A stretch of DNA of 34,203 nt from Chloroflexia bacterium (GCA_034667185.1 JAXDKH010000262.1:1-34203); one strand, 5' to 3'. Positions 4,712 to 31,428 are shown, counted from the first letter of the stretch. A program made the numbers and translations. The notes: generated by a model not told the origin, from the sequence alone.

Positions 4712-5167
4712 ATGTCGCAAGCGGTATATTCCAGGGTCATACAATTCGGTGCTCTATTGATAGGTGCGGTCTATCTGGTGCTCGGCCTGGCAGGCTTCAT
4801 TCCCTCCGACGCCATCAACCCGCTACACCACGAGCACATAGAGACCCCTTATTTGCTGAACCTTGTCGCCATCAATGCTCTCCACAACGTGATCCACTTA
4901 GCAATCGGAGTCACAGGACTGCTCGCAAGCAGACGCCTTGCCTGGGCGCGGCAGTGGGGCGTAATCACCGGCGTGGTGCTGTTGTTGCTTTTCCTCGCGG
5001 GCATGGTGCAGGCCGCCCTAGAAGGCTTGCCACCCGACCAGTTGTTCCTCGGCGTGCTGCCGTTGAACTCACCCGGCCACATCCTGCACCTCGTGACCGG
5101 CGCGCTCGCCCTTTACCTGGGCCTGGTACGGCTACCTACACCTGACGGTGCAGGGGATACTTCCTGA
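4712..5167 (+). CDS. Small 4-TM membrane protein, DUF4383-like
   Basis: 151 aa. The pattern LGLAGFIP...NALHNVIHLAIGVTGL...HILHLVTGALALYLG resembles DUF4383 proteins, from memory and not searched. GAGGG lies 7 nt upstream, and the gene starts 10 nt after the previous gene. Confidence 0.7.
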   Translation: MSQAVYSRVIQFGALLIGAVYLVLGLAGFIPSDAINPLHHEHIETPYLLNLVAINALHNVIHLAIGVTGLLASRRLAWARQWGVITGVVLLLLFLAGMVQAALEGLPPDQLFLGVLPLNSPGHILHLVTGALALYLGLVRLPTPDGAGDTS

Positions 5168-5230
5168 CGCGTTGGGGCCCCCTAATTTTGCCTCACATCT
5201 CTTATACTCTCTCGAAGAGCATTAGAAGCT

Positions 5231-5445
5231 ATCTCAAAAATGAAAACGTTGAATGTGAGCACATATCAGGTATTGTCATTTCGAACGTAGTGAGAAATCT
5301 CGTCCCTCACCAAGATGGAACTCTTTTCTCACGAGGGTCCGTGTCATAAGCAAAATGCTATGATGTGCTGAGGGACGAGATTTCTCACTCCGTTCGAAAT
5401 GACAAGGTAGGGGCTTGGGTCTTTATGTCCTGCCATTTTTGAGAT
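5231..5445. repeat. Nested palindromic intergenic element (MITE/REP-like), family 2
   Basis: The outer arms are atctcaaaaatg (5231-5242) and catttttgagat (5434-5445). The inner 37-nt arms are ttgtcatttcgaacgtagtgagaaatctcgtccctca (5273-5309) and tgagggacgagatttctcactccgttcgaaatgacaa (5369-5405), complementary except for one base pair of the central dinucleotide (ta vs ga). A related solo copy lies at 33121-33183. Confidence 0.8.
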
Positions 5446-5492
5446 GACTTGTACTATGCGTAAGCAACCGCACTATAAAGAGGGCCTTTGAC

Positions 5493-6650
5493 CTGGACAC
5501 TTATTCCGCTGACGTCATAGTTTCGGGCGCGGGCCCTGCCGGTTCCACGGTAGCTTACCAGTTGGCACGCCGGGGCGTGAGCGTGCTCGTGCTAGAAAAA
5601 GAGCGCCTGCCACGTTACAAGACCTGCGGTGGCGGCATCACCGTAAAGTGCGCCCGCTTGCTCGACTTCGACATCAGCCCTGTCATCGAACGCACCATCA
5701 TGGGCGTCAGCGTCACCAACCGCCTGGCCCCCGGCGTCACCTGGCGCAGCGATGAGCCACTCTGCTACATGGTCATGCGCGACCGCTTCGACTACTTATT
5801 AGCGCAAAAGGCCCAGGAGGCAGGCGCTCGCATCCTGGAGGGCAGCCCGGCCAAGACCGTTGCGGTGAGCGACGAGGGCGTAGTAGTTACCACGCGGGAC
5901 GGATGCCAGTTCCACGGCAAGGTAATAGTGGGGGCAGATGGGGCCAACGGTGTGGTTGCTCGCGGCCTGGGGCTGGGGCATGAAGGCACCATAGGTATTG
6001 GGCTGGAGAGCGAGGTTCGGGTCGCGCCTGGCGACCTCGACACGTGGCGCGACCTGCTCCTGCTCGATATGGCCCTGCTCAAGCACGGTTACGGCTGGAT
6101 ATTCCCCAAGGCCGATCACCTCTCCATCGGGGTAGGCGGCCCGTCCGATCAAGCTCCACTGGTGAAGCAATACTCCGCGCGGTTTACCGGTTATTGCCGG
6201 TCTATCCTCGCTGAATATGAAGTGGTGCACACCCAGGGGCACAGGCTGCCGGTCCGCCCCGCCGGTCTCCCCATCCACGCGCAACGCGGCGTGCTGGTTG
6301 GCGATGCGGCAGGCATGGTCAACCCACTGGATGGCGAGGGCATATACTACGCTATCAGTAGCGGGCAGATAGCCGCTGCTGCTATACTTGAAGTCATGTC
6401 GGGCAGCGCGCCCCTCGACTTCAGCAACTACCAGCGAGGCATCGACGCCCATATTGCGGTCGAGTTGTACCGGGCGGCGCAGTTGGTCAAGATTTATGGC
6501 TACGCACCCCGGCTCTTCGCCTGGCTGCTGGCCCACAACTCCCGGCTGCGCTCGGCCATTTTCGCCCTGGTGCGGGGGGAGATGCATTACAGCGACATTC
6601 CCGCAAGGCTGGGGCCGATCGGTTGGCTTTTGGAGCGCGCTCCCACGTAA
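5493..6650 (+). CDS. Geranylgeranyl reductase family FAD-dependent oxidoreductase (start uncertain; tracked ORF starts at TTG 5562)
   Basis: The motifs VIVGADGANGVVAR and GDAAGMVNPLDGEGIYYAI fit the GGR/FixC-type flavoproteins. In-frame codons upstream of 5562 (frame open from 5448) encode YSADVIVSGAGPAGSTVAYQ, which is the GxGxxG FAD-binding motif. The only plausible initiator is CTG 5493, preceded by AAGAGGG at 5478-5484. Confidence 0.8.
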   Translation: MDTYSADVIVSGAGPAGSTVAYQLARRGVSVLVLEKERLPRYKTCGGGITVKCARLLDFDISPVIERTIMGVSVTNRLAPGVTWRSDEPLCYMVMRDRFDYLLAQKAQEAGARILEGSPAKTVAVSDEGVVVTTRDGCQFHGKVIVGADGANGVVARGLGLGHEGTIGIGLESEVRVAPGDLDTWRDLLLLDMALLKHGYGWIFPKADHLSIGVGGPSDQAPLVKQYSARFTGYCRSILAEYEVVHTQGHRLPVRPAGLPIHAQRGVLVGDAAGMVNPLDGEGIYYAISSGQIAAAAILEVMSGSAPLDFSNYQRGIDAHIAVELYRAAQLVKIYGYAPRLFAWLLAHNSRLRSAIFALVRGEMHYSDIPARLGPIGWLLERAPT

Positions 6651-19148: not shown

Positions 19149-20066
19149 ATGAATGCTATTGAAACGCGCGGTTTGACGCGCAAGTTTGGGGACCGGCTGG
19201 CGGTAGACCAGTTGGACCTGGCGATCCCGCGTGGACAGGTGTTCGGGTTTCTGGGGCCGAACGGCGCGGGGAAGACTACGACCGTAAGGATGCTGTCGGC
19301 CATTATCGCGCCCACCAGCGGCACCGCGACGGTCAACGGGCACATGCTCGGGGACGGGAACAGCGAGATACGACGCTCGGTGGGCATTCTAACAGAGACG
19401 CCGGGGTTGTACGAGAAGCTGACCGCCATGCAGAACCTGGAGTTCTTCGCCGGATTGTACGAGGTGGAGGAGCAGGCTGCCAAACAGGCGGCGGAGCGCT
19501 ACCTGAAGCTGATGGACCTGTGGGAACGGCGCGACGACAAGGTAGGCGGCTTTTCGAAGGGCATGAGGCAGAAGCTGGCAATAGCTCGCGCGCTACTGCA
19601 CGACCCCGCCATCGTCTTCCTGGACGAGCCAACGGCGGGCCTGGACCCGGAGGCCGCGCGCACGGTGCACGAGTTCATAAAGAACCTGCGCTCCGAGGGC
19701 CGCACTGTTTTCCTGACCACTCATAACTTATCTGAGGCTGACACGCTATGCGATCTGATTGGTGTGTTCAGGACGAGATTGCTGACGCTAGGCTCGCCAC
19801 GGGAATTGCGGAGCCGCTTGTTCGGCACGGGCACGCTAGTAACGGTAGCCGGCGAGGCAGAGAAGTGGGCGGCGCTGGTGAAGGCCCTGCCCTTCGTCAA
19901 GCAGGTGACCGCGGGCGACGGCACGCTCTCGGTGGCCCTGGACGACCCAGACAGTATGAACCCCTTGCTGGTGCAGGCGCTGGTCGGTGCAGGAGCCTTT
20001 GTGCGCTATGTGCAACCCTCGTCGCACTCGCTGGAGGAAGTGTATTTGCAATTGGTGAGTGGATAG
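19149..20066 (+). CDS. ABC transporter ATP-binding protein (ABC-2 exporter type, 305 aa)
   Basis: It has GPNGAGKTTT, FSKGMRQKLAIARAL and VFLDEPTAGLD, plus a C-terminal accessory domain. Confidence 0.9.
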   Translation: MNAIETRGLTRKFGDRLAVDQLDLAIPRGQVFGFLGPNGAGKTTTVRMLSAIIAPTSGTATVNGHMLGDGNSEIRRSVGILTETPGLYEKLTAMQNLEFFAGLYEVEEQAAKQAAERYLKLMDLWERRDDKVGGFSKGMRQKLAIARALLHDPAIVFLDEPTAGLDPEAARTVHEFIKNLRSEGRTVFLTTHNLSEADTLCDLIGVFRTRLLTLGSPRELRSRLFGTGTLVTVAGEAEKWAALVKALPFVKQVTAGDGTLSVALDDPDSMNPLLVQALVGAGAFVRYVQPSSHSLEEVYLQLVSG

Positions 20067-20070
20067 GGAA

Positions 20071-20154
20071 GGAATTTGGAAATTGGAATTTCGAATTGCG
20101 AATTTGTTTGGATGCGTTCTAAATTCGCAATTCGAAATTCCAATTTCCAAATCC
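20071..20154. repeat. AT-rich palindromic heptamer-array element, family 1, copy B (inside an operon)
   Basis: The arms are GGAATTTGGAAATTGGAATTTCGAATTGCGAATTT (20071-20105) and AAATTCGCAATTCGAAATTCCAATTTCCAAATCC (20121-20154). 28 nt pair perfectly, with a 15-nt loop. It sits between the ATPase stop (20066) and the permease start (20168). Confidence 0.9.
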
Positions 20155-20167
20155 GTCAGGGGGTATT

Positions 20168-20968
20168 GTGAACAAAATTAGGGTCATTTTGCGGAAGGAA
20201 TGGCTGGAGCTGCGGCAGGAGAAGGTGTTGCTGCTTACTACAGGGCTGCTGCCGTTGTTCTTCGCGCTTGCACCGCTGGTGTTCGCGTTTGTAATCAAAG
20301 GCGTAGACGTAAGCGACATGCAGGGCGAGATGAAGGACTTCGAGCAGTTGCTGGCGATCAACCCTGCGTTCCAGGGGATGAACATGCTGGAGTTCGGGCA
20401 GGCGGTGATCGGGCAGCAGATTAGCCTCATGTTCTTGCTATTGCCAATGATCCTACCAAGCGTAATCGCATCGTATAGCGTAGTAGGAGAGAAGAACAGC
20501 CGGACGCTGGAGCCGGTGCTGGCTACCCCCGTGACCACGCTTGAGTTCCTGCTGGCGAAGAGCATCACCGCGGTGCTGCCCAGCATGATAATGACATGGG
20601 TAGCAGGGGCGATCTTCGCGCTGGGCATGATACCGGCAGCGGTGTCGGCGCGAGCGTATGCCGCAGTCGTGTCCCCCACGTGGGTGCTGATGCTGCTCTT
20701 GTGGGCCCCGTTGCTGTCACTCATAACAGTGGGATTGACGGTGCTGATATCGTCGAAAGCCAATGATCCACGCAGCGCGCAACAAATATCCGTGGTGCTG
20801 ATACTGCCCATGATCGGCTTGATAGTCGCACAGCTAAGCGGTGTGCTGGTGCTGGGGCCGCTGGTAGTGATAGGGGGAGCAGTCGCGCTTGCGTTGGTAG
20901 CCGCCATCGTAATGAACCTGGCGGTGCAATTCTTCCAAAGGGAGTCGATCCTGACCCGGTGGAGCTAA
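20168..20968 (+). CDS. ABC-2 family transporter permease
   Basis: 266 aa with a GTG start. The N-terminus MNKIRVILRKEWLELRQEK is followed by 6 hydrophobic helices. Confidence 0.85.
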   Translation: MNKIRVILRKEWLELRQEKVLLLTTGLLPLFFALAPLVFAFVIKGVDVSDMQGEMKDFEQLLAINPAFQGMNMLEFGQAVIGQQISLMFLLLPMILPSVIASYSVVGEKNSRTLEPVLATPVTTLEFLLAKSITAVLPSMIMTWVAGAIFALGMIPAAVSARAYAAVVSPTWVLMLLLWAPLLSLITVGLTVLISSKANDPRSAQQISVVLILPMIGLIVAQLSGVLVLGPLVVIGGAVALALVAAIVMNLAVQFFQRESILTRWS

Positions 20969-25630: not shown

Positions 25631-26980
25631 ATGAAGAAAGATAACTGGAAACACAACCCTAACGACCTGCCCCGTTGGAAGCGTCTCTCCCCCGCCGAGC
25701 CTGACGCCACCAACCAGCCCGGCGTGCCCTCCGAGCCACGGGACCGCCACGACCCCACCTCCAGTGAGCGCCTGCAAAAGATACTTGCCCAGGCCGGTAT
25801 CGCCTCCCGCCGCGCCGCCGAAGAGCTAATCGCCGCGGGCCGCGTCACCGTCAACGGAGAGGTCGTCAAAGAGATGGGTGTGCGCGCCGACCCCGCCACC
25901 GATACCATCGCGGTTGATGGCAAGCCCCTGAAGCTCAACACCGGGACGGGGCAGGCCCAGAAGTTCGTCTACATAGCCCTTAACAAGCCTCTTGGCGTCG
26001 TGTCCACGGTCAAGGACCCGGAGGGCAGGCCGACCGTGATGACCTTACTCGCGAGCGCAAAGCTCACTGAGCAGGGGCTGCGCCTCTATCCCGTCGGCAG
26101 GCTCGACACCGACTCCACCGGCCTGCTCCTCCTCACCAACGACGGCGACCTCACCTTCCGACTGACCCATCCCCGCTACGAGGTGGACAAGGAGTACCAC
26201 GTGATCGTGCGTGGTAGGCCGACTGGTGAGGCCCTCAACAAGCTGCGCGAGGGTGTCATGATAGAGGGTGGCCTCACAGCCCCCGCCAAGATAGACGTGC
26301 TCAGTCGCACCGAGGGCAACACCAGCCTGCGCATCACCATCCGCGAAGGCCGCAAGCGCCAGGTGCGCCTCATGTGCGCCGCGGTGGGCCACCCCGTGAT
26401 CGAGCTTACCCGCGTGCGCTTTGGCCCCATCGAGCTAGGCGACCTCCAGCCTGGCAAGTGGCGCAACCTGGCCGTGCATGAGGCCCACGCCCTCCGCAAA
26501 GCCGTCAAGCTCAAATCCGCAGGTTCCAACCAGGTCGCAAGCCCAACGCCACCTGCTCCCGCGCCCGCCAAGGTGAACGCCAGGACGCGCCCCTCCCGCC
26601 GCCCGCAGCCCACAGGCGCACCGCACCAGGCGGGAGCGTCTCGCACGCGGCCCACCTCTACGCCTGCCCGCAGGCCTTCAACTGCCTTCCGTCCGGACCG
26701 CCCAAAGCAGGAGAGTAGGGGCACAGGCTCCCCACAGGGTACTGAAACAAGGCCAAGGCCCACGAACACGAGAACAAGGACCGAAGCGGGCAGGGGCGCA
26801 GGAACGAGGCCCCCGACCTCAAGCCCAAGATCGGAAACAGGTGCTGCACCCAGGAGGGGCACAGGCACACGCAGCACCAACGCGCGCTCCGCCCAACCGC
26901 CACGCCGCAAGGACTCCAGCCCTCGCCCATCACGCGGCCAGGGAGCACCGCCACGCCGCACCCGAGGCCCTAGGTCATAA
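25631..26980 (+). CDS. rluB: 23S rRNA pseudouridine synthase, RsuA/RluB family, with a very long basic low-complexity C-terminal tail
   Basis: The S4 domain is RLQKILAQAGIASRRAAEELIAAGRVTVNG and the catalytic motif is YPVGRLDTDSTGLLLLTNDG. About 150 C-terminal residues are rich in Arg, Pro, Thr, Ser and Gly. GAGGGG lies upstream, 3 nt after the previous stop. Confidence 0.88.
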   Translation: MKKDNWKHNPNDLPRWKRLSPAEPDATNQPGVPSEPRDRHDPTSSERLQKILAQAGIASRRAAEELIAAGRVTVNGEVVKEMGVRADPATDTIAVDGKPLKLNTGTGQAQKFVYIALNKPLGVVSTVKDPEGRPTVMTLLASAKLTEQGLRLYPVGRLDTDSTGLLLLTNDGDLTFRLTHPRYEVDKEYHVIVRGRPTGEALNKLREGVMIEGGLTAPAKIDVLSRTEGNTSLRITIREGRKRQVRLMCAAVGHPVIELTRVRFGPIELGDLQPGKWRNLAVHEAHALRKAVKLKSAGSNQVASPTPPAPAPAKVNARTRPSRRPQPTGAPHQAGASRTRPTSTPARRPSTAFRPDRPKQESRGTGSPQGTETRPRPTNTRTRTEAGRGAGTRPPTSSPRSETGAAPRRGTGTRSTNARSAQPPRRKDSSPRPSRGQGAPPRRTRGPRS

Positions 26981-27043
26981 CCACACCTGCATCGAGCCTG
27001 CACGACGCGACGTAGGCCGGATGGCGCCAACTGCGTGTCTACA

Positions 27044-27052
27044 TGGTATACT
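27044..27052 (+). promoter_or_regulatory. Extended -10 promoter TGgTATACT at the left edge of the low-GC block
   Basis: The sequence reads acaTGgTATACTttaag, about 43 nt upstream of ATG 27095. No good -35 is present, as is usual for extended -10 promoters. Confidence 0.45.
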
Positions 27053-27094
27053 TTAAGATATGTCAATGATTTGGCAACATGCCTAGGGATTCAC

Positions 27095-28390
27095 ATGCCC
27101 AACTTCCAATTTCCTGATTTCCAAGAAAAAGTAACCGTAGAACAAATAAGCAGGGCTTGTAACCTTTCTGCAGATACAATCGTGCAGAACTTCGTTATAA
27201 ATTCATCAGGCGCGGGCTGGCATCAGTATTTGGGGCAAAACCGAAGCGGTCCGTCGGCTACAGCAATTGGCCTGTCTATCCTCAGTATGTTAGATCGCCC
27301 GTTCCAGTATGCTAATTTAGCCAAAGAGGAATTGTACAAGAGCCAGTTCAGAAGTAAGAGCAATCTCGCAGTCGAGGGTGGTTGGACTTTCCCTTCCATT
27401 GGCGCCTATCCAATTACAGAAGCAACATCTTATGTAATCTATGGTCTCATCATATCCGGTGAGTCACTACTTTCGAATCGCGCGGTTCAGAAAGGAGTCG
27501 AGTGGCTGAAGAACAATCAAAATGCTGATGGTGGTTGGGGATCAGTTCATGACAGCGCAAGTCGGACTTATTCAACATATTGGGCTACATGTGCCGTGTC
27601 TCTAAGTCGTATTCATTATGACATACTCGATATGGCGCGAACCTGGGTGAAACTCCACCAGAATAGTGACGGGGGTTGGGGCGAAATACCTACCAAGTTG
27701 AGCACACCCGTGCACACTGCCTTGGGCGTCCTTACACTTCTTAACTGTGGTGAAGACCCGGTATCGAGCCCAATACAGAGCGCCATAGGTTGGTTGTACA
27801 GGAACTGGAATCAAGATACTATGTGGGAATCGCAAGACATGCATGAGGAATGGGACATTGCGAGAGGGTCAAATCAATGGGACCGAGTACGTATTCGTCA
27901 CTTTCAGACCCAGTGGGTAGTACTTGCGCTCCTGAACGGAGGCATTGGTATTTATCGGCGGGAAGTGTTTCGAGCAATTAACTGGATAATTCGCACTCAA
28001 CAGCCAGAAGGTTATTGGCATCATCCTTCTGTTGGTAATGCGAAGTCCATCTGGGGTGTTCATGATTCGACCTTAGTGTTGACGACATTCTTGCGTAGCT
28101 TCGGCTCGGTCTCGCATACTGGTGTCATTGAATGGCTCGGCACAAGTGTCGTTTTTCATAAAGAGGGAGCCACCTCCTCATTCGGGATCCTCCTCGCACG
28201 CCAGTTGTTTGGCACCAGTAAACGACTTGTGCTAAAATATCTGAGTTTCCTGTTAGCGGTCGTTTCCTTATTAGCGATCCTTCTCATTATGCCTGCTATG
28301 GGTTTCTCATGGCGAGACGTATTGGTTGCCTTCTTCATACCGCTAGTTTTTTTCTTGATCCAGTTGATAATTTATCGGCCACGCGCGTAA
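27095..28390 (+). CDS. Prenyltransferase/squalene-cyclase-like (QW-repeat) alpha/alpha-barrel protein with a C-terminal 2-TM anchor
   Basis: The repeats VEWLKNNQNADGGWGS, TWVKLHQNSDGGWGE, IGWLYRNWNQDTMW, INWIIRTQQPEGYWHH and LAVEGGWTF match the W-L-x3-Q-x2-DGGW terpenoid-cyclase/prenyltransferase repeat. No DxDD or DDxxD is present. The C-terminal helices are LSFLLAVVSLLAILLIMPAMGF and VLVAFFIPLVFFLIQLIIY. The tracked start GTG 27035 lies upstream of the -10 box, so I prefer ATG 27095. Confidence 0.8.
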   Translation: MPNFQFPDFQEKVTVEQISRACNLSADTIVQNFVINSSGAGWHQYLGQNRSGPSATAIGLSILSMLDRPFQYANLAKEELYKSQFRSKSNLAVEGGWTFPSIGAYPITEATSYVIYGLIISGESLLSNRAVQKGVEWLKNNQNADGGWGSVHDSASRTYSTYWATCAVSLSRIHYDILDMARTWVKLHQNSDGGWGEIPTKLSTPVHTALGVLTLLNCGEDPVSSPIQSAIGWLYRNWNQDTMWESQDMHEEWDIARGSNQWDRVRIRHFQTQWVVLALLNGGIGIYRREVFRAINWIIRTQQPEGYWHHPSVGNAKSIWGVHDSTLVLTTFLRSFGSVSHTGVIEWLGTSVVFHKEGATSSFGILLARQLFGTSKRLVLKYLSFLLAVVSLLAILLIMPAMGFSWRDVLVAFFIPLVFFLIQLIIYRPRA

Positions 28391-28445
28391 TACAGCTCGG
28401 CGAATAGCATGTTGAAGAGGTAAGGGGTTCCGGAGGGGCGTATTA

Positions 28446-29114
28446 GTGTTACAAGCAGCGTGCGATTTTTGTGTTGAACTTTCCTTTGGCAAAGGGAGCG
28501 ATCTTACCCGGAATCTGCTTGCACCAGAATACGGGTCGCGTTTGCTGTACCAGAGCCCTAATTTTGTAGTCATGCCTTCCCTTGGGCAAATTGTTGAGGG
28601 TTATCTATTGATTGTCCCAAAAGCGCATTTCATATCAATGGCGCACTTACCGGACACGTTGTTTTCTGAACTTATAGAGGTAAAAGAGCACATTCGTACG
28701 CTCCTAACTGATGCTTACGCAACTCCGCTAACTTTTGAGCATGGTCCGATGTCTGAAACTGAGCGTGGTGGTTGTTGTGTTGATCACGCCCATTTTCACG
28801 TCGTTCCTACGAACGTAGATTTATTAGCTTCTTTGCAGTCTCGCTTTCAAGGGCATCATATTCTAGAACTTACTGATGTCAAACAGCAACTGAACAAGAG
28901 AGTTCCCTATTTGTACTATGAAACTCAAGCGGGTGTCGCCTACATCTTTGACGCACCAGTAGTTGAATCTCAGTTCTTGCGACGCCAGTTAGCGAAGGAA
29001 GTAGGCGTTCCCGACGAATGGGATTGGGCGGTTTATCCTGGAGTAGATAGGATAAAGTCCACGTTAGCCCTTCTGCAACACGAACCTCATAAGGACCCGG
29101 TACTATGGTTGTGA
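28446..29114 (+). CDS. HIT (histidine triad) family nucleotide hydrolase/transferase, Hint-like with a C-terminal extension
   Basis: The N-terminal CDFC corresponds to the CIFC of Hint proteins. LLIVPKAH and the triad DHAHFHVVP (H-phi-H-phi-H-phi-phi) are present. The start is GTG with GGAGGGG 8 nt upstream. There are about 80 extra C-terminal residues. Confidence 0.85.
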   Translation: MLQAACDFCVELSFGKGSDLTRNLLAPEYGSRLLYQSPNFVVMPSLGQIVEGYLLIVPKAHFISMAHLPDTLFSELIEVKEHIRTLLTDAYATPLTFEHGPMSETERGGCCVDHAHFHVVPTNVDLLASLQSRFQGHHILELTDVKQQLNKRVPYLYYETQAGVAYIFDAPVVESQFLRRQLAKEVGVPDEWDWAVYPGVDRIKSTLALLQHEPHKDPVLWL

Positions 29115-29815
29115 AAAAGGGTCTAGTTATAGCAATTGATGGACCCGCAAGTTCAGGCAAGGGTACTATCGGATCTCTCGTCGCTTCACGATTGAACTAT
29201 AAATTCATCGACACGGGCGCGATGTATAGGTCTGTTGCTTTGCTGGCGCTTGATCAGGGTATAGATTTACAAAATAGTAACGCAGTCGGGCAACTGGCCG
29301 AAGCCTCAGAAATTAAATTTGTGTACGAAAGTATACGTGGAGTGCCAGGATATCGTGTTCTCATAGATGGAATGGACGTGAGTATTGCCATTAGGTCACC
29401 GACAATTGATAGCGCAGCATCCCAAATAGCTCAATATGTAGCAGTTAGGCACGCACTGCAAGCAAAGCAGCGTGTTTTGGCACAAAACGGATCTGTCGTG
29501 ATGGAAGGGAGAGATATTACTACTGTTGTTTTCCCCAATGCCGACCTTAAGCTGTACATAACAGCTTCGATTCATCAACGTGCGCGCCGTCGTTATGAAC
29601 AAAATGCTAAGCGCAATATACATGTGAGTGTCAAAGATATCGAAGAAGAGCTTGCTAAACGTGATCGGATGGACACCCAGCGCCACGCTAGTCCCCTTCA
29701 GCTAGCAAGGGATGCTATTGTGGTAGATACAACTCACATGACAGTAGCAGAGGCAGTGGATAAGATACTTTCCCTAATCCGTGAGCGTTTCCCTCAATAT
29801 GTTGATGTTAGCTGA
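29105..29815 (+). CDS. cmk: Cytidylate (CMP/dCMP) kinase, canonical bacterial type
   Basis: It has IAIDGPASSGKGT (P-loop), DTGAMYRSVA, EGRDITTVVFPNADLKLYITASIHQRARRR and RDRMDTQRHASPLQLARDAIVVDTT. The start overlaps the HIT gene by 10 nt. Confidence 0.9.
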   Translation: MVVKKGLVIAIDGPASSGKGTIGSLVASRLNYKFIDTGAMYRSVALLALDQGIDLQNSNAVGQLAEASEIKFVYESIRGVPGYRVLIDGMDVSIAIRSPTIDSAASQIAQYVAVRHALQAKQRVLAQNGSVVMEGRDITTVVFPNADLKLYITASIHQRARRRYEQNAKRNIHVSVKDIEEELAKRDRMDTQRHASPLQLARDAIVVDTTHMTVAEAVDKILSLIRERFPQYVDVS

Positions 29816-30057
29816 TACCATATCAAAGCTTTACTTCAGATTCTCTTGAGTGTTAGTGCTCTGTCCCCTGGATCAGGAGTAAATTGAATTGGGGAGTATA
29901 TGAGGCATGAGAGATCCATTCACTAAGGACTCGAAGGAATTGGACCTACACTTCTGACAGGTTCCCTCATAATCCCGGATTGCTCTCCGTGTGCCGTTCC
30001 TTATGCATCAATGTTTCCGGTCTAAAGACTTCCTGAAATATAGAGCCAGAGAATAAT

Positions 30058-31428
30058 TCAGTCCGCCGACCTGTACTCCCTCAATGATGGCACCAAAAAC
30101 GCCGTCAGCGCCGTCACCGCAATCACCGCCACACCACCGAGCGCGATAGACGGCCCAATCCCGATCACCGTCGCGGCTACCCCTGCCTCTACCTCGCCAA
30201 GCTGCGGCCCTCCGATGTAGAACAGCATATTCACCGAGGTCATCCGCCCCCGCAGCTCGTCCGGCGTGTTCAACTGCCGTATGGTCTGCCGCATCACCAT
30301 GCTCACCGTGTCAGCAGCCCCGGTACCCGCCAGCCCCAGCACGGCCAGCCAGAACGTCCCCGACAGCCCGAACACCACCGTCGCCGCCCCATACGCAATC
30401 ACCGAGACTATCACCAGCAGGCCCTGCCGCTTAACGTTGCCTACCCACGACATCACCAGCCCAGCAATCAGGGCACCCACGGCGGGCGCGGCGTACAGCA
30501 CTCCCCAGAACAGCCGGTCTACCTGCAACACCCTCTCTGCGAATGGAGGCAGCAGCACCATCGCCGCCCCGAAGAATGTCGCGAAGAAGTCCAGCGACAT
30601 AGTTGACATAATTATCGGCATCTTGCGCAGGAACCGCAGCCCGTCCAGCGCCGCCCCCATGCTGACGTTGCGTTGCAGCCCCTTCTCCGACCGCGCCCGC
30701 ATCAGCCACAGCGCCAGCATCACCGCCCCGAACGAAATAGCGTCGATCCAGTAGATGATCACGAACCCGCCCGAACCGAGGAACAGGAAAACCCCGCCCA
30801 GGGTAGGGCCGATGATGGTGGCAATCTGCCACACGATGATGTTCAGCGATAGCGCGTTAGGGAGGTGCTTGCGCTCCACCAGGCTGGGCACGAACGCCGA
30901 GCGCGCCGGGTTGTCAAACGCTGTGGTCGCCGCGCTCAACGCGCTAACGCCGTAGATGATGCCTGGAGAGATCCACCCGAACTGCGTGCTCGCCGCCAGC
31001 AGCACCGATGTGAGGGCAAACACCCCCTGCGTCATCAGCAGCAGCCTGCGCCTGTCGAACGAGTCGGCTATCACCCCACCGAACAACGACAGCAGCAACA
31101 GAGGCACCAACTTGAACACGCCCAGCAGCCCCAGCGCCGCGGGGTTATGCGTCAGGTCCCACATCTGCACCCCAATAGCCACGATGCGCATCTGGCTGCC
31201 GGTCTGCGACACAAAGCCGCCCATCCACAGCAGCCGGAAGTCCCTGTACCTCAGCGCGATGAAGGGGGATGACTTTCTGGGGGCCTCCTCAACGACCGGC
31301 GGCGTCTCAGCAGTAGCCACAGCCGCGTTAGGCGCATTGACGCCCATCGAAGGCGCGATGGGGCCTGGCTCAACGGTGTATCTCTTCGGGGTCGTATCCT
31401 GGGCGCTCACCCGAAAATTGTACCGCAA
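30058..31428 (-). CDS. MFS transporter (EntS/MFS_3-like), 12 TM
   Basis: It has FRLLWMGGFVSQTGSQM, multiple hydrophobic helices and an Ala/Pro-rich N-terminal extension. The start is TTG 31428 (GGAGG 4 nt upstream) or ATG 31347. Confidence 0.85.
   Translation of the reverse strand: MRYNFRVSAQDTTPKRYTVEPGPIAPSMGVNAPNAAVATAETPPVVEEAPRKSSPFIALRYRDFRLLWMGGFVSQTGSQMRIVAIGVQMWDLTHNPAALGLLGVFKLVPLLLLSLFGGVIADSFDRRRLLLMTQGVFALTSVLLAASTQFGWISPGIIYGVSALSAATTAFDNPARSAFVPSLVERKHLPNALSLNIIVWQIATIIGPTLGGVFLFLGSGGFVIIYWIDAISFGAVMLALWLMRARSEKGLQRNVSMGAALDGLRFLRKMPIIMSTMSLDFFATFFGAAMVLLPPFAERVLQVDRLFWGVLYAAPAVGALIAGLVMSWVGNVKRQGLLVIVSVIAYGAATVVFGLSGTFWLAVLGLAGTGAADTVSMVMRQTIRQLNTPDELRGRMTSVNMLFYIGGPQLGEVEAGVAATVIGIGPSIALGGVAVIAVTALTAFLVPSLREYRSAD

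Follow-up and report, generated by a model that had tools for sequence, protein, structure and literature searches.

A compositionally foreign cassette of a Chloroflexia bacterium pairs a putatively membrane-anchored QW toroid with a CwfJ-like HIT protein: a candidate nucleotide-centred conflict module

Introduction

Nucleotide-based immunity, in the form of viperins, nucleotide depletion and signalling nucleotides, is a theme common to bacterial and animal innate immunity, and the enzyme families found in it in the past each brought new chemistry. A related logic is known from phage T4, which uses a dCTPase, a dCMP-modifying enzyme and a deoxynucleoside monophosphate (dNMP) kinase; the accessory genes discussed below are comparable to this set. 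Validated defence systems that combine thymidylate synthase, dNMP kinase and NMAD domains have also been described (PMC13092281). Here we analyze a block of three genes in a contig of a Chloroflexia bacterium (GCA_034667185.1, JAXDKH010000262.1:1-34203; this whole stretch of 34,203 nt is called the window). The genes encode a QW-type alpha/alpha toroid with a transmembrane hairpin (QW-TM), a histidine triad (HIT) protein and a cytidylate kinase (cmk). Like pVip (prokaryotic viperin) with its kinase, or the human RSAD2-CMPK2 pair, they form a small array in which a putative nucleotide-transforming enzyme stands together with a nucleoside monophosphate (NMP) kinase.

A preliminary description of the window had proposed that the three genes form a foreign, nucleotide-centred cassette. 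We compare the locus with its relatives in other genomes, and also with defence databases, protein families and known structures. On balance, we regard it as probable that the cassette is a nucleotide-centred conflict or defence module of a previously undescribed family, which was horizontally acquired and is most likely directed against phages. Its core would be the QW-TM and HIT pair, with cmk in a more variable role.

Results and Discussion

The QW and HIT genes lie at most two genes apart in all eleven distinct QW loci that hold a HIT gene, and they are directly adjacent in nine of these. The loci come from Methanoperedens, Bacteroidia and several uncultured lineages. Adjacent or overlapping genes are seen in the window and in L001, L002/L003, L007, L018 (Methanoperedens BLZ2), L027 (Mariniflexile), L028 (Paludibacteraceae), L029 (Aquimarina) and L030 (L and P numbers designate loci and proteins of the comparison). 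Both gene orders occur, the overlaps amount to 4-11 nt, and in four Bacteroidia loci HIT and QW overlap or abut. That the two genes are kept together in both orders argues for functional coupling and not for inherited synteny.

The preliminary description had raised the question of whether the gene families occur together elsewhere. They do: besides the pair in eleven loci of very different lineages, the full trio recurs twice. In L001 the order is QW-HIT-cmk-NUDIX (QW 53% identity), and in L002/L003 the QW and HIT genes are followed by a cmk::NUDIX fusion (L002 QW 44% identity), whose additional C-terminal domain matches a nucleoside triphosphate (NTP) pyrophosphohydrolase of Caulobacter (phmmer E 3.5e-7). 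The L001 HIT gene (L001:1561-2207) is split into two overlapping open reading frames (ORFs) by a frameshift or an assembly error, and the other cassette genes there are intact.

The remaining arrangements vary. L007 has the order Nmad1-HIT-QW, and in L018 the HIT-QW pair is accompanied by tandem Nmad1 genes. L008 consists of ThyX, a transposase, QW-NUDIX-HIT and then another transposase-related gene. In L004/L005, an operon of pyruvate-kinase-like, AIRS-like and HIT genes runs divergently from a methyltransferase-QW operon, so that the methyltransferase gene separates HIT and QW. As signs of mobility, the pair is bracketed by transposases in L008 and has a resolvase and a C5 methylase in its vicinity in L029, and in L099, L004 and L002 the operons have a guanine-plus-cytosine (GC) content below that of their own contig. 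As to the searches themselves, a word-indexed search gave few QW homologues, each of them informative where its context could be read. With the HIT profile, 22 loci were obtained in a genome scan, from DPANN archaea, bacteria of the candidate phyla radiation, Elusimicrobia, Methanoperedens, Acidobacteria and Bacteroidia.

We now consider the composition of the block. The low-GC segment that had been noticed by hand counting between the rluB stop and the stop of a convergent major facilitator superfamily (MFS) gene is borne out by GC, by GC at third codon positions (GC3) and by tetranucleotides. The GC content is 0.465 for 27035-30057 and 0.609 for the rest of the window. In 500-nt windows it is 0.45-0.49 across 27001-30000 and 0.60-0.69 on either side; the 303 windows outside have a mean of 0.608 (standard deviation 0.033) and a minimum of 0.502, which equals the maximum within the block. 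The GC3 values of QW-TM, HIT and cmk are 0.48, 0.42 and 0.38, compared to 0.78 and 0.77 for the upstream CNNM and rluB genes, and the tetranucleotide distance of 27001-30000 to the remaining contig corresponds to z=19 against 51 background windows. The composition is thus far beyond the range of the contig, and the block is foreign by composition and most likely horizontally acquired. At a resolution of 60 nt, the GC content falls at about 27000-27060, some 20-80 nt past the rluB stop at 26980, and it is regained where the convergent MFS gene stops, at about 30060-30100.

The layout of the block is summarized in Table 1. The three genes are co-oriented, with a gap of 55 nt between QW-TM and HIT and an overlap of 10 nt between HIT and cmk, and we infer that they form one operon. 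Motifs of Shine-Dalgarno type precede ATG 27095 (AGGGA), GTG 28446 (GGAGGGG) and ATG 29105. The spacings and the non-coding AT-rich end given in the preliminary description agree with the ORF coordinates. Its proposal that the block has its own extended -10 promoter holds in part: the motif is present, as a mere consensus match, with no -35 hexamer, and it does not appear in a sigma-70 scan, which requires one. No terminator-like site was found after cmk, and in the 242-nt tail there is no such site, tRNA, Rfam match, cmk remnant or NUDIX remnant. Scans for ORFs, repeats, tRNAs and Rfam families also agree with the earlier statement that the block has no integrase, transposase or tRNA, and they show no Rfam match and no flanking direct or inverted repeats. 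A classical genomic island or integrative element was therefore rejected, since integrase or transposase, tRNA target and direct repeats are all missing and composition is the single island feature seen.

Table 1. Coordinates of the block and its features in the window.
Feature	Position	Strand	Remarks
Compositionally foreign block	27035..30057	+	GC, GC3, tetranucleotide deviation
Extended -10-like motif TGgTATACT	27044..27052	+	consensus match only; 43 nt upstream of ATG 27095
QW-TM gene	27095..28390	+	431 aa from ATG 27095; in-frame GTG 27035 less likely start
HIT gene	28446..29114	+	222 aa, GTG start
cmk, (d)CMP kinase	29105..29815	+	236 aa
AT-rich non-coding tail	29816..30057		242 nt, GC 0.434, up to convergent MFS stop

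Some further features of the window and of a second assembly can be mentioned here. Milder GC dips are found at 5001-5500 (0.518) and at 20001-20500 (0.502), the latter at the junction of the ORFs 19149-20066 and 20168-20968. The RluB-type pseudouridine synthase (26130-26980) has a C-terminal tail of low complexity (about 170-280 aa), which is rich in Pro, Arg, Thr and Ser, reaches a GC content of 0.75 and terminates just ahead of the foreign block. The sole RNA gene found in the window, a tRNA-Arg(TCT) at 2664-2737 on the minus strand, is far from the block. A second assembly of the locus (L006, JGI 3300044737 contig) stops 71 nt past the QW gene (window 28390-28461) and places the HIT gene on a separate 5.75-kb contig; the break lies inside the island and possibly reflects strain heterogeneity.

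The link to immunity comes from the homologues of QW-TM. L099:6887-10757 is a four-gene operon that encodes a QW protein (P0008), an inositol monophosphatase (IMPase)-like protein, a pVip radical S-adenosylmethionine (SAM) protein (PADLOC E 3e-84) and a thymidylate-kinase-like protein (PDC-M51B). P0008 has 30% identity to QW-TM and the same architecture of toroid and hairpin, with an N-terminal extension. The operon is located downstream of genes for FHA and HerA/DUF87-like ATPase proteins, has a GC content of 0.598 compared to 0.664 for its contig, and looks like an undescribed variant of the viperin system. The parallel to viperins and their kinases drawn in the preliminary description has thereby gained a concrete counterpart, in which a QW homologue shares an operon with both.

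Fusions point in the same direction. In a Pfam scan of 98 members of the QW family, the toroid is fused to NUDIX (six cases), EAD11 (three), PNP_UDP_1 (two) and ADP-ribosylglycohydrolase (one); the multidomain arrangements among P0338, P0323, P0345 and P0352 are NUDIX+QW+EAD11, NUDIX+QW+TM and QW+PNP_UDP_1. EADs serve as adaptors through which effectors are connected to conflict systems based on NTPases (PMC7159879). In addition, about 25 longer QW members, the class to which the pVip-linked protein belongs, carry a common, non-canonical domain of about 140 aa at the N-terminus, and jackhmmer ties this domain to the NUDIX-fused member P0286.

It is important to point out that a number of observations weigh against an immune role. 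The block is surrounded in the window by rluB, CNNM, MFS and DedA-like genes, with no recognizable defence island, and the L018 neighbours are housekeeping genes, including those for tRNA modification and SAM synthesis. The link to pVip consists of a single locus with a more distant QW homologue. In PADLOC-DB v2.0.0, QW-TM and HIT match no family (E<=0.1), and the same holds for P0008. No HIT gene was seen on the short contig L100, which carries a QW homologue. The fold matches of QW-TM are generic (TM-score about 0.5), so the chemistry is not readable from them. As to the third gene, cmk is absent from eight of the eleven QW-HIT loci, and the window copy is indistinguishable from housekeeping cmk genes.

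QW-TM and HIT reach no cut-off in NCBIfam, and the literature searched (HIT, CwfJ, squalene-cyclase-like, Nudix, defence) contains no description of the pair, in keeping with the preliminary description, which knew of no pathway or defence system with this combination. Neither gene is a member of a characterized pathway, and the proposal thereby withstands all three of the refuting checks named in the preliminary description, the other two being co-occurrence elsewhere and composition. Most neighbours in L018, L029 and L030 have no PADLOC match. A pVip match in L018 was rejected, as the protein is a TYW1 wyosine radical-SAM enzyme and not a viperin. For the window cmk, the match to VakA is weak (E 3.9e-5), and the pVip-kinase model covers its P-loop only.

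We now turn to the question of whether cmk belongs to the system. The identification of the third gene as a cytidylate kinase is secure: it scores 238 bits against the TIGR00017 equivalog (cut-off 135.55), which covers residues 7-223 of 236, it matches Pfam Cytidylate_kin with E 2e-73, and it contains the P-loop 'GPASSGKGT'. A possible, though less probable, reading is that the functional unit consists of QW and HIT only and that cmk is a housekeeping bystander, carried along when DNA from a lower-GC relative replaced the region. Apart from the equivalog score, this is favoured by the nearest relatives of the window cmk (54-56% identity), which are ordinary stand-alone housekeeping genes of native GC content, one of them directly downstream of rluB (L093). 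A metagenome scan with rluB for an empty site in close relatives of the host gave no locus above 51% identity, and its result was used for the general synteny of the two genes. In the closest rluB loci, L033, L034, L040 and L042, rluB is followed by cmk with 0-2 genes in between, so the window cmk sits in an ancestral housekeeping slot. The cassette cmk genes form no clean clade in a neighbour-joining tree, which is poorly resolved and decides neither for nor against a dedicated clade. The eight loci that have no cmk also speak for the bystander, as does a truncated second cmk (C-terminal part) just past the L001 cassette, at L001:3341-3532 (hmmsearch E 6e-7), which suggests that the cassettes sit at resident cmk loci.

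On the other side, the foreign composition extends to cmk, whose GC3 (0.376) is below that of QW-TM and HIT, and 10 nt of the gene lie within HIT. The fusions in L002 and P0130 join cmk to NUDIX, which is found repeatedly beside this HIT family, and to an NTP-pyrophosphatase-like domain, and the viperin-type operon with the QW homologue likewise carries a nucleotide kinase. Combined with the position after rluB in the window, the truncated cmk of L001 hints that cassettes with cmk insert at, or replace, the resident gene. A P-loop-like stretch before QW in L002 ('PSTIAIDGPAAS', L002:2-37) was considered as another cmk remnant, but it is not significant (E 0.9) and is not relied on. No displaced native cmk and no decayed NUDIX remnants were found in the flanks within the window. 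Of the three-gene unit originally proposed, the recurrence of the full trio stands and the conserved core shrinks to QW and HIT; we regard cmk, present in three of the eleven loci, as an accessory component and perhaps also as a replacement of the host's own copy.

The partners of the HIT family provide another view of the module. At least 12 of 28 loci have a NUDIX gene in the neighbourhood of HIT, L007 and L018 have Nmad1/DUF1599, and a long ThyX occurs near HIT relatives in Parabacteroides and in L015. Remote relatives of HIT are also found on plasmids: in Parabacteroides with long ThyX, an AAA ATPase and DHFR, in Caulobacter with a methyltransferase and an 815-aa NTP pyrophosphohydrolase, and in Streptomyces with MazG, a methyltransferase and a cysteine desulfurase. 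The common denominator of these partners is pyrimidine or (d)NMP/NTP metabolism.

In six Acidobacteria loci (L020-L025, e.g. L020:6433-9648), the arrangement is NUDIX-'C3'-HIT-'C4', in which C3 is a membrane protein that weakly matches DUF5919 and C4 is uncharacterized, with a length of about 320 aa. C4 is also located 3' of HIT on the Streptomyces plasmid, beside the cysteine desulfurase (L098:4992-6577). The option of C4 being a divergent QW toroid was discarded (hhalign probability 0.3, no Pfam or PDB relative). A distant HIT relative on the Lactococcus lactis plasmid pUC06C (L095:4748-7455) is grouped with a class V aminotransferase and an EamA-like membrane protein. This group is bracketed by IS1216, IS1675 and ISS1, and the dairy plasmid also bears a PemK/MazF toxin.

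Such a repertoire can also be read in a non-immune way, namely that a modified pyrimidine nucleotide is made or salvaged for DNA, RNA or a cofactor, or as a nucleoside antimetabolite or natural product. The presence of ThyX, DHFR, SAM methyltransferases, cysteine desulfurase or class V aminotransferase, MazG, GNAT and an EamA-type exporter among the HIT partners would fit this, as would the setting of L018 described above and the results for phage collections: a scan of IMG/VR with the HIT profile gave no relative, INPHARED phages yielded nothing in tblastn searches with HIT and QW, and a fold search in BFVD returned generic HIT proteins only. We nevertheless find this explanation unlikely. 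The fusions of QW to EAD11, PNP_UDP_1 and ADP-ribosylglycohydrolase and the link to pVip are against it, the occurrence of the family is patchy and tied to mobile elements, and the window cassette has no biosynthetic scaffold genes.

Next, we consider the QW-TM protein. It matches Pfam SQHop_cyclase_C with 1.5e-19 and Prenyltrans only partially. In the AlphaFold model (mean predicted local distance difference test score, pLDDT, 81.6), a single alpha/alpha toroid is accompanied by two beta hairpins and, at the C-terminus, three helices. The barrel, of squalene-cyclase/prenyltransferase type, covers about residues 15-335 and is followed by a membrane hairpin at about 377-429, for which hydropathy gives two transmembrane segments; both termini are predicted to be cytoplasmic. 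Foldseek returns squalene-hopene cyclase (SHC), drimenyl-diphosphate (drimenyl-PP) synthase, MstE, the beta subunit of farnesyltransferase (FTase-beta) and TED domains, with TM-scores of about 0.45-0.5. The earlier view of a toroid-fold protein with two C-terminal transmembrane helices is therefore borne out by Pfam, AlphaFold, Foldseek and hydropathy. An exhaustive profile search places 435 representative clusters in the family at E<=1e-30, and the C-terminal hydrophobic hairpin is present in 118 of the top 150 matches.

The SHC motif D374-V-D376-D377-T-A aligns to I-T-E109-A-T111-S of QW-TM, with the family pattern T-E109-(A/S)-T111. The polar residues conserved in 132 family members are Q84, E109 (87%), T111, T161, T208 and H269 (86%), and E109 is replaced by Gly or Leu in some. 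No cysteine is conserved in 80% or more of these members. A class II terpene cyclase by motif was rejected because DxDD is absent; an SHC-type double barrel because the model has one barrel and not the beta-gamma didomain; and a protein prenyltransferase beta subunit because there is no conserved Cys for the Asp/Cys/His zinc site and the Prenyltrans match is partial. QW-TM scores 50.6 bits against TIGR01507 hopene_cyclase (cut-off 431) and 61 against TIGR01787 (cut-off 323).

The second protein is a member of the HIT superfamily, with an HxHxH motif and the HIT fold in its model, and it scores 29.7 bits against Pfam HIT (cut-off 21.5; 1e-6). Its motifs are an N-terminal CxxC (C6, C9), FEHG (H99) and the triad H114-x-H116-x-H118 ('DHAHFHVVP'); in alignments of 32-36 family members, H114 and H116 are invariant and H118 is at least 90% conserved. 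The family profile finds human CWF19L1 residues 350-522 in the PDB, across both lobes (E 5e-14), and the AlphaFold model (pLDDT 91) has CWF19L1/L2/Cwf19 of intron-lariat spliceosomes as its six top Foldseek matches. Pfam CwfJ_C_1 gives 16.8 bits, below its cut-off of 21, and CwfJ_C_2 is not reported. On the basis of profile and model, we describe the protein as a two-lobed, CwfJ/CWF19-like HIT protein with an intact triad. The assignment to the Hint type in the preliminary description does not hold, as the protein has 222 aa with a second lobe at about 125-215, and Hint-like entries match the first lobe only, with E 1e-7 or worse. For the suggested parallel to HIT phosphoramidases that confer immunity to peptide-nucleotide antibiotics, no support was found. 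The public call of the HIT gene (P0072, 180 aa) leaves out the conserved CxxC, and some sources label members of the family 'ATP adenylyltransferase'.

Cytidine nucleotides carry lipid head groups, and one may ask whether QW-TM is a cyclase or polyprenyl binder, with HIT acting on a CDP-activated lipid or alcohol and cmk recycling CMP. We consider this quite improbable, since, against the similarity to SHC, drimenyl-PP synthase and MstE, the membrane anchor and the appearance of Cdh (2pof, CDP-diacylglycerol pyrophosphatase) at rank 25 of the HIT fold matches, there stand the active-site and single-barrel arguments given above, the loss of the Glu in some members, loci devoid of prenyl-diphosphate synthase or lipid genes, and recurrent partners that are all soluble nucleotide enzymes. 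The three rival readings overlap with the favoured one and with one another, and the likelihoods we attach to the four are to be read with this overlap.

Returning to the nucleotide-centred conflict or defence module, we can outline how it might operate. HIT triads react through a covalent NMP-histidine intermediate, from which the NMP is handed to water, phosphate or a phosphoester. The core of the module would be the QW-TM toroid, anchored on the cytoplasmic side of the membrane through its C-terminal hairpin, together with the CwfJ/GalT-like, two-lobed HIT enzyme. Where present, cmk could supply or re-phosphorylate (modified) (d)CMP, and the HIT enzyme would make or break an NMP-X linkage, thus yielding or using up a non-canonical pyrimidine nucleotide. 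QW-TM would be its membrane-anchored partner, either as a second enzyme with a pocket formed by Glu109 and His269, at the site of the catalytic Asp in class II cyclases, or as a binding or effector subunit. The pyrophosphatases found in some loci (NUDIX, MazG-like, Nmad1) may turn NTP into NMP or shield the host. More generally, the lineage-specific accessories would shift the pyrimidine phosphorylation state (cmk, pyrophosphatases) or modify nucleotides (ThyX, methyltransferases, cysteine desulfurases). To assign the AIR-synthase-family and pyruvate-kinase-barrel proteins of one locus as kinases would be a guess.

A more far-reaching possibility, which we put forward as speculation and would not expect to be correct as a whole, is that QW-TM and the CwfJ-like HIT represent a new immune class of bacteria and archaea, in which a terpene-cyclase fold has taken on a part in nucleotide chemistry at the membrane. 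HIT would then move CMP supplied by cmk onto, or off, a membrane phosphoester held by the toroid, and the lipid- or membrane-linked pyrimidine nucleotide so made or destroyed would block phage replication or trigger abortive infection. Versions in which the cassette cmk replaces the essential resident gene would in that case make the host dependent on the island.

Two families without an assigned prokaryotic role are brought together here, namely a squalene-cyclase-fold membrane toroid with several hundred clusters and a relative of CWF19 that is catalytically intact by sequence. If the cassette is a defence or antimetabolite system, it should yield a nucleotide-derived product or activity that is new, give biochemical access to the function of the CwfJ-type HIT fold, and show the terpene-cyclase fold at work outside isoprenoid chemistry. 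With a size of 3 kb, the cassette is directly testable.

Comparison with Known Systems

Thoeris type II has, in ThsC, a HIT-domain protein that is likewise tied to a defence system (PADLOC, PMC8565338). The window HIT, in contrast, matches no PADLOC model, and genes for ThsA, ThsB or TIR are missing.

The GalT/Ap4A-phosphorylase branch of the HIT superfamily has in common with the window HIT a single chain with two half-barrel lobes and an N-terminal CxxC with a His motif, which presumably resembles the zinc site of GalT. The Ap4A phosphorylases 3ano and 3wo5 are weak matches to the HIT profile (E about 0.05). Unlike in the GalT/Ap4A setting, there are no sugar-phosphate or sulfate-pathway genes near the window HIT. 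Closer in architecture are CWF19L1, CWF19L2 and Drn1 of the intron-lariat spliceosome, which share the two-lobed, HIT-like arrangement in one chain. The window protein differs from them in being prokaryotic, a stand-alone protein of 222 aa, and equipped with HxHxH and the N-terminal CxxC, and its family is linked to nucleotide enzymes and not to the RNA debranching of the CWF19 proteins.

For QW-TM, the closest known proteins are SHC, MstE, the 'SHC' of Archangium/Cystobacter (8paj/8pak) and drimenyl-diphosphate synthase, with which it has the QW-type alpha/alpha toroid in common. E109 aligns with the proton-donor Asp376 of SHC. In contrast to these cyclases, QW-TM has no DxDD, one barrel, a C-terminal transmembrane hairpin and a polar pocket (E109/H269/T111/T161/T208), and its partners and fusions are nucleotide enzymes and not isoprenoid enzymes.

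At the level of whole systems, the prokaryotic viperins differ in that the window block has no radical-SAM ORF; the CwfJ-like HIT, with different chemistry, occupies the place of the viperin, and the 3'-deoxy-3',4'-didehydro (ddh) nucleotide product of viperin cannot be inferred for the window cassette. The DefensePredictor systems have the same accessory set as the loci studied here, that is, NTP pyrophosphatases (NUDIX, MazG, Nmad1), ThyX and an NMP kinase, and they contain neither the QW toroid nor the CwfJ-like HIT, neither of which is mentioned in the paper (PMC13092281). Built from two protein families that are new to this setting and lying outside any described system, the QW-HIT module appears, by analogy, to follow a logic that resembles both viperin-kinase pairs and nucleotide-modification defence.

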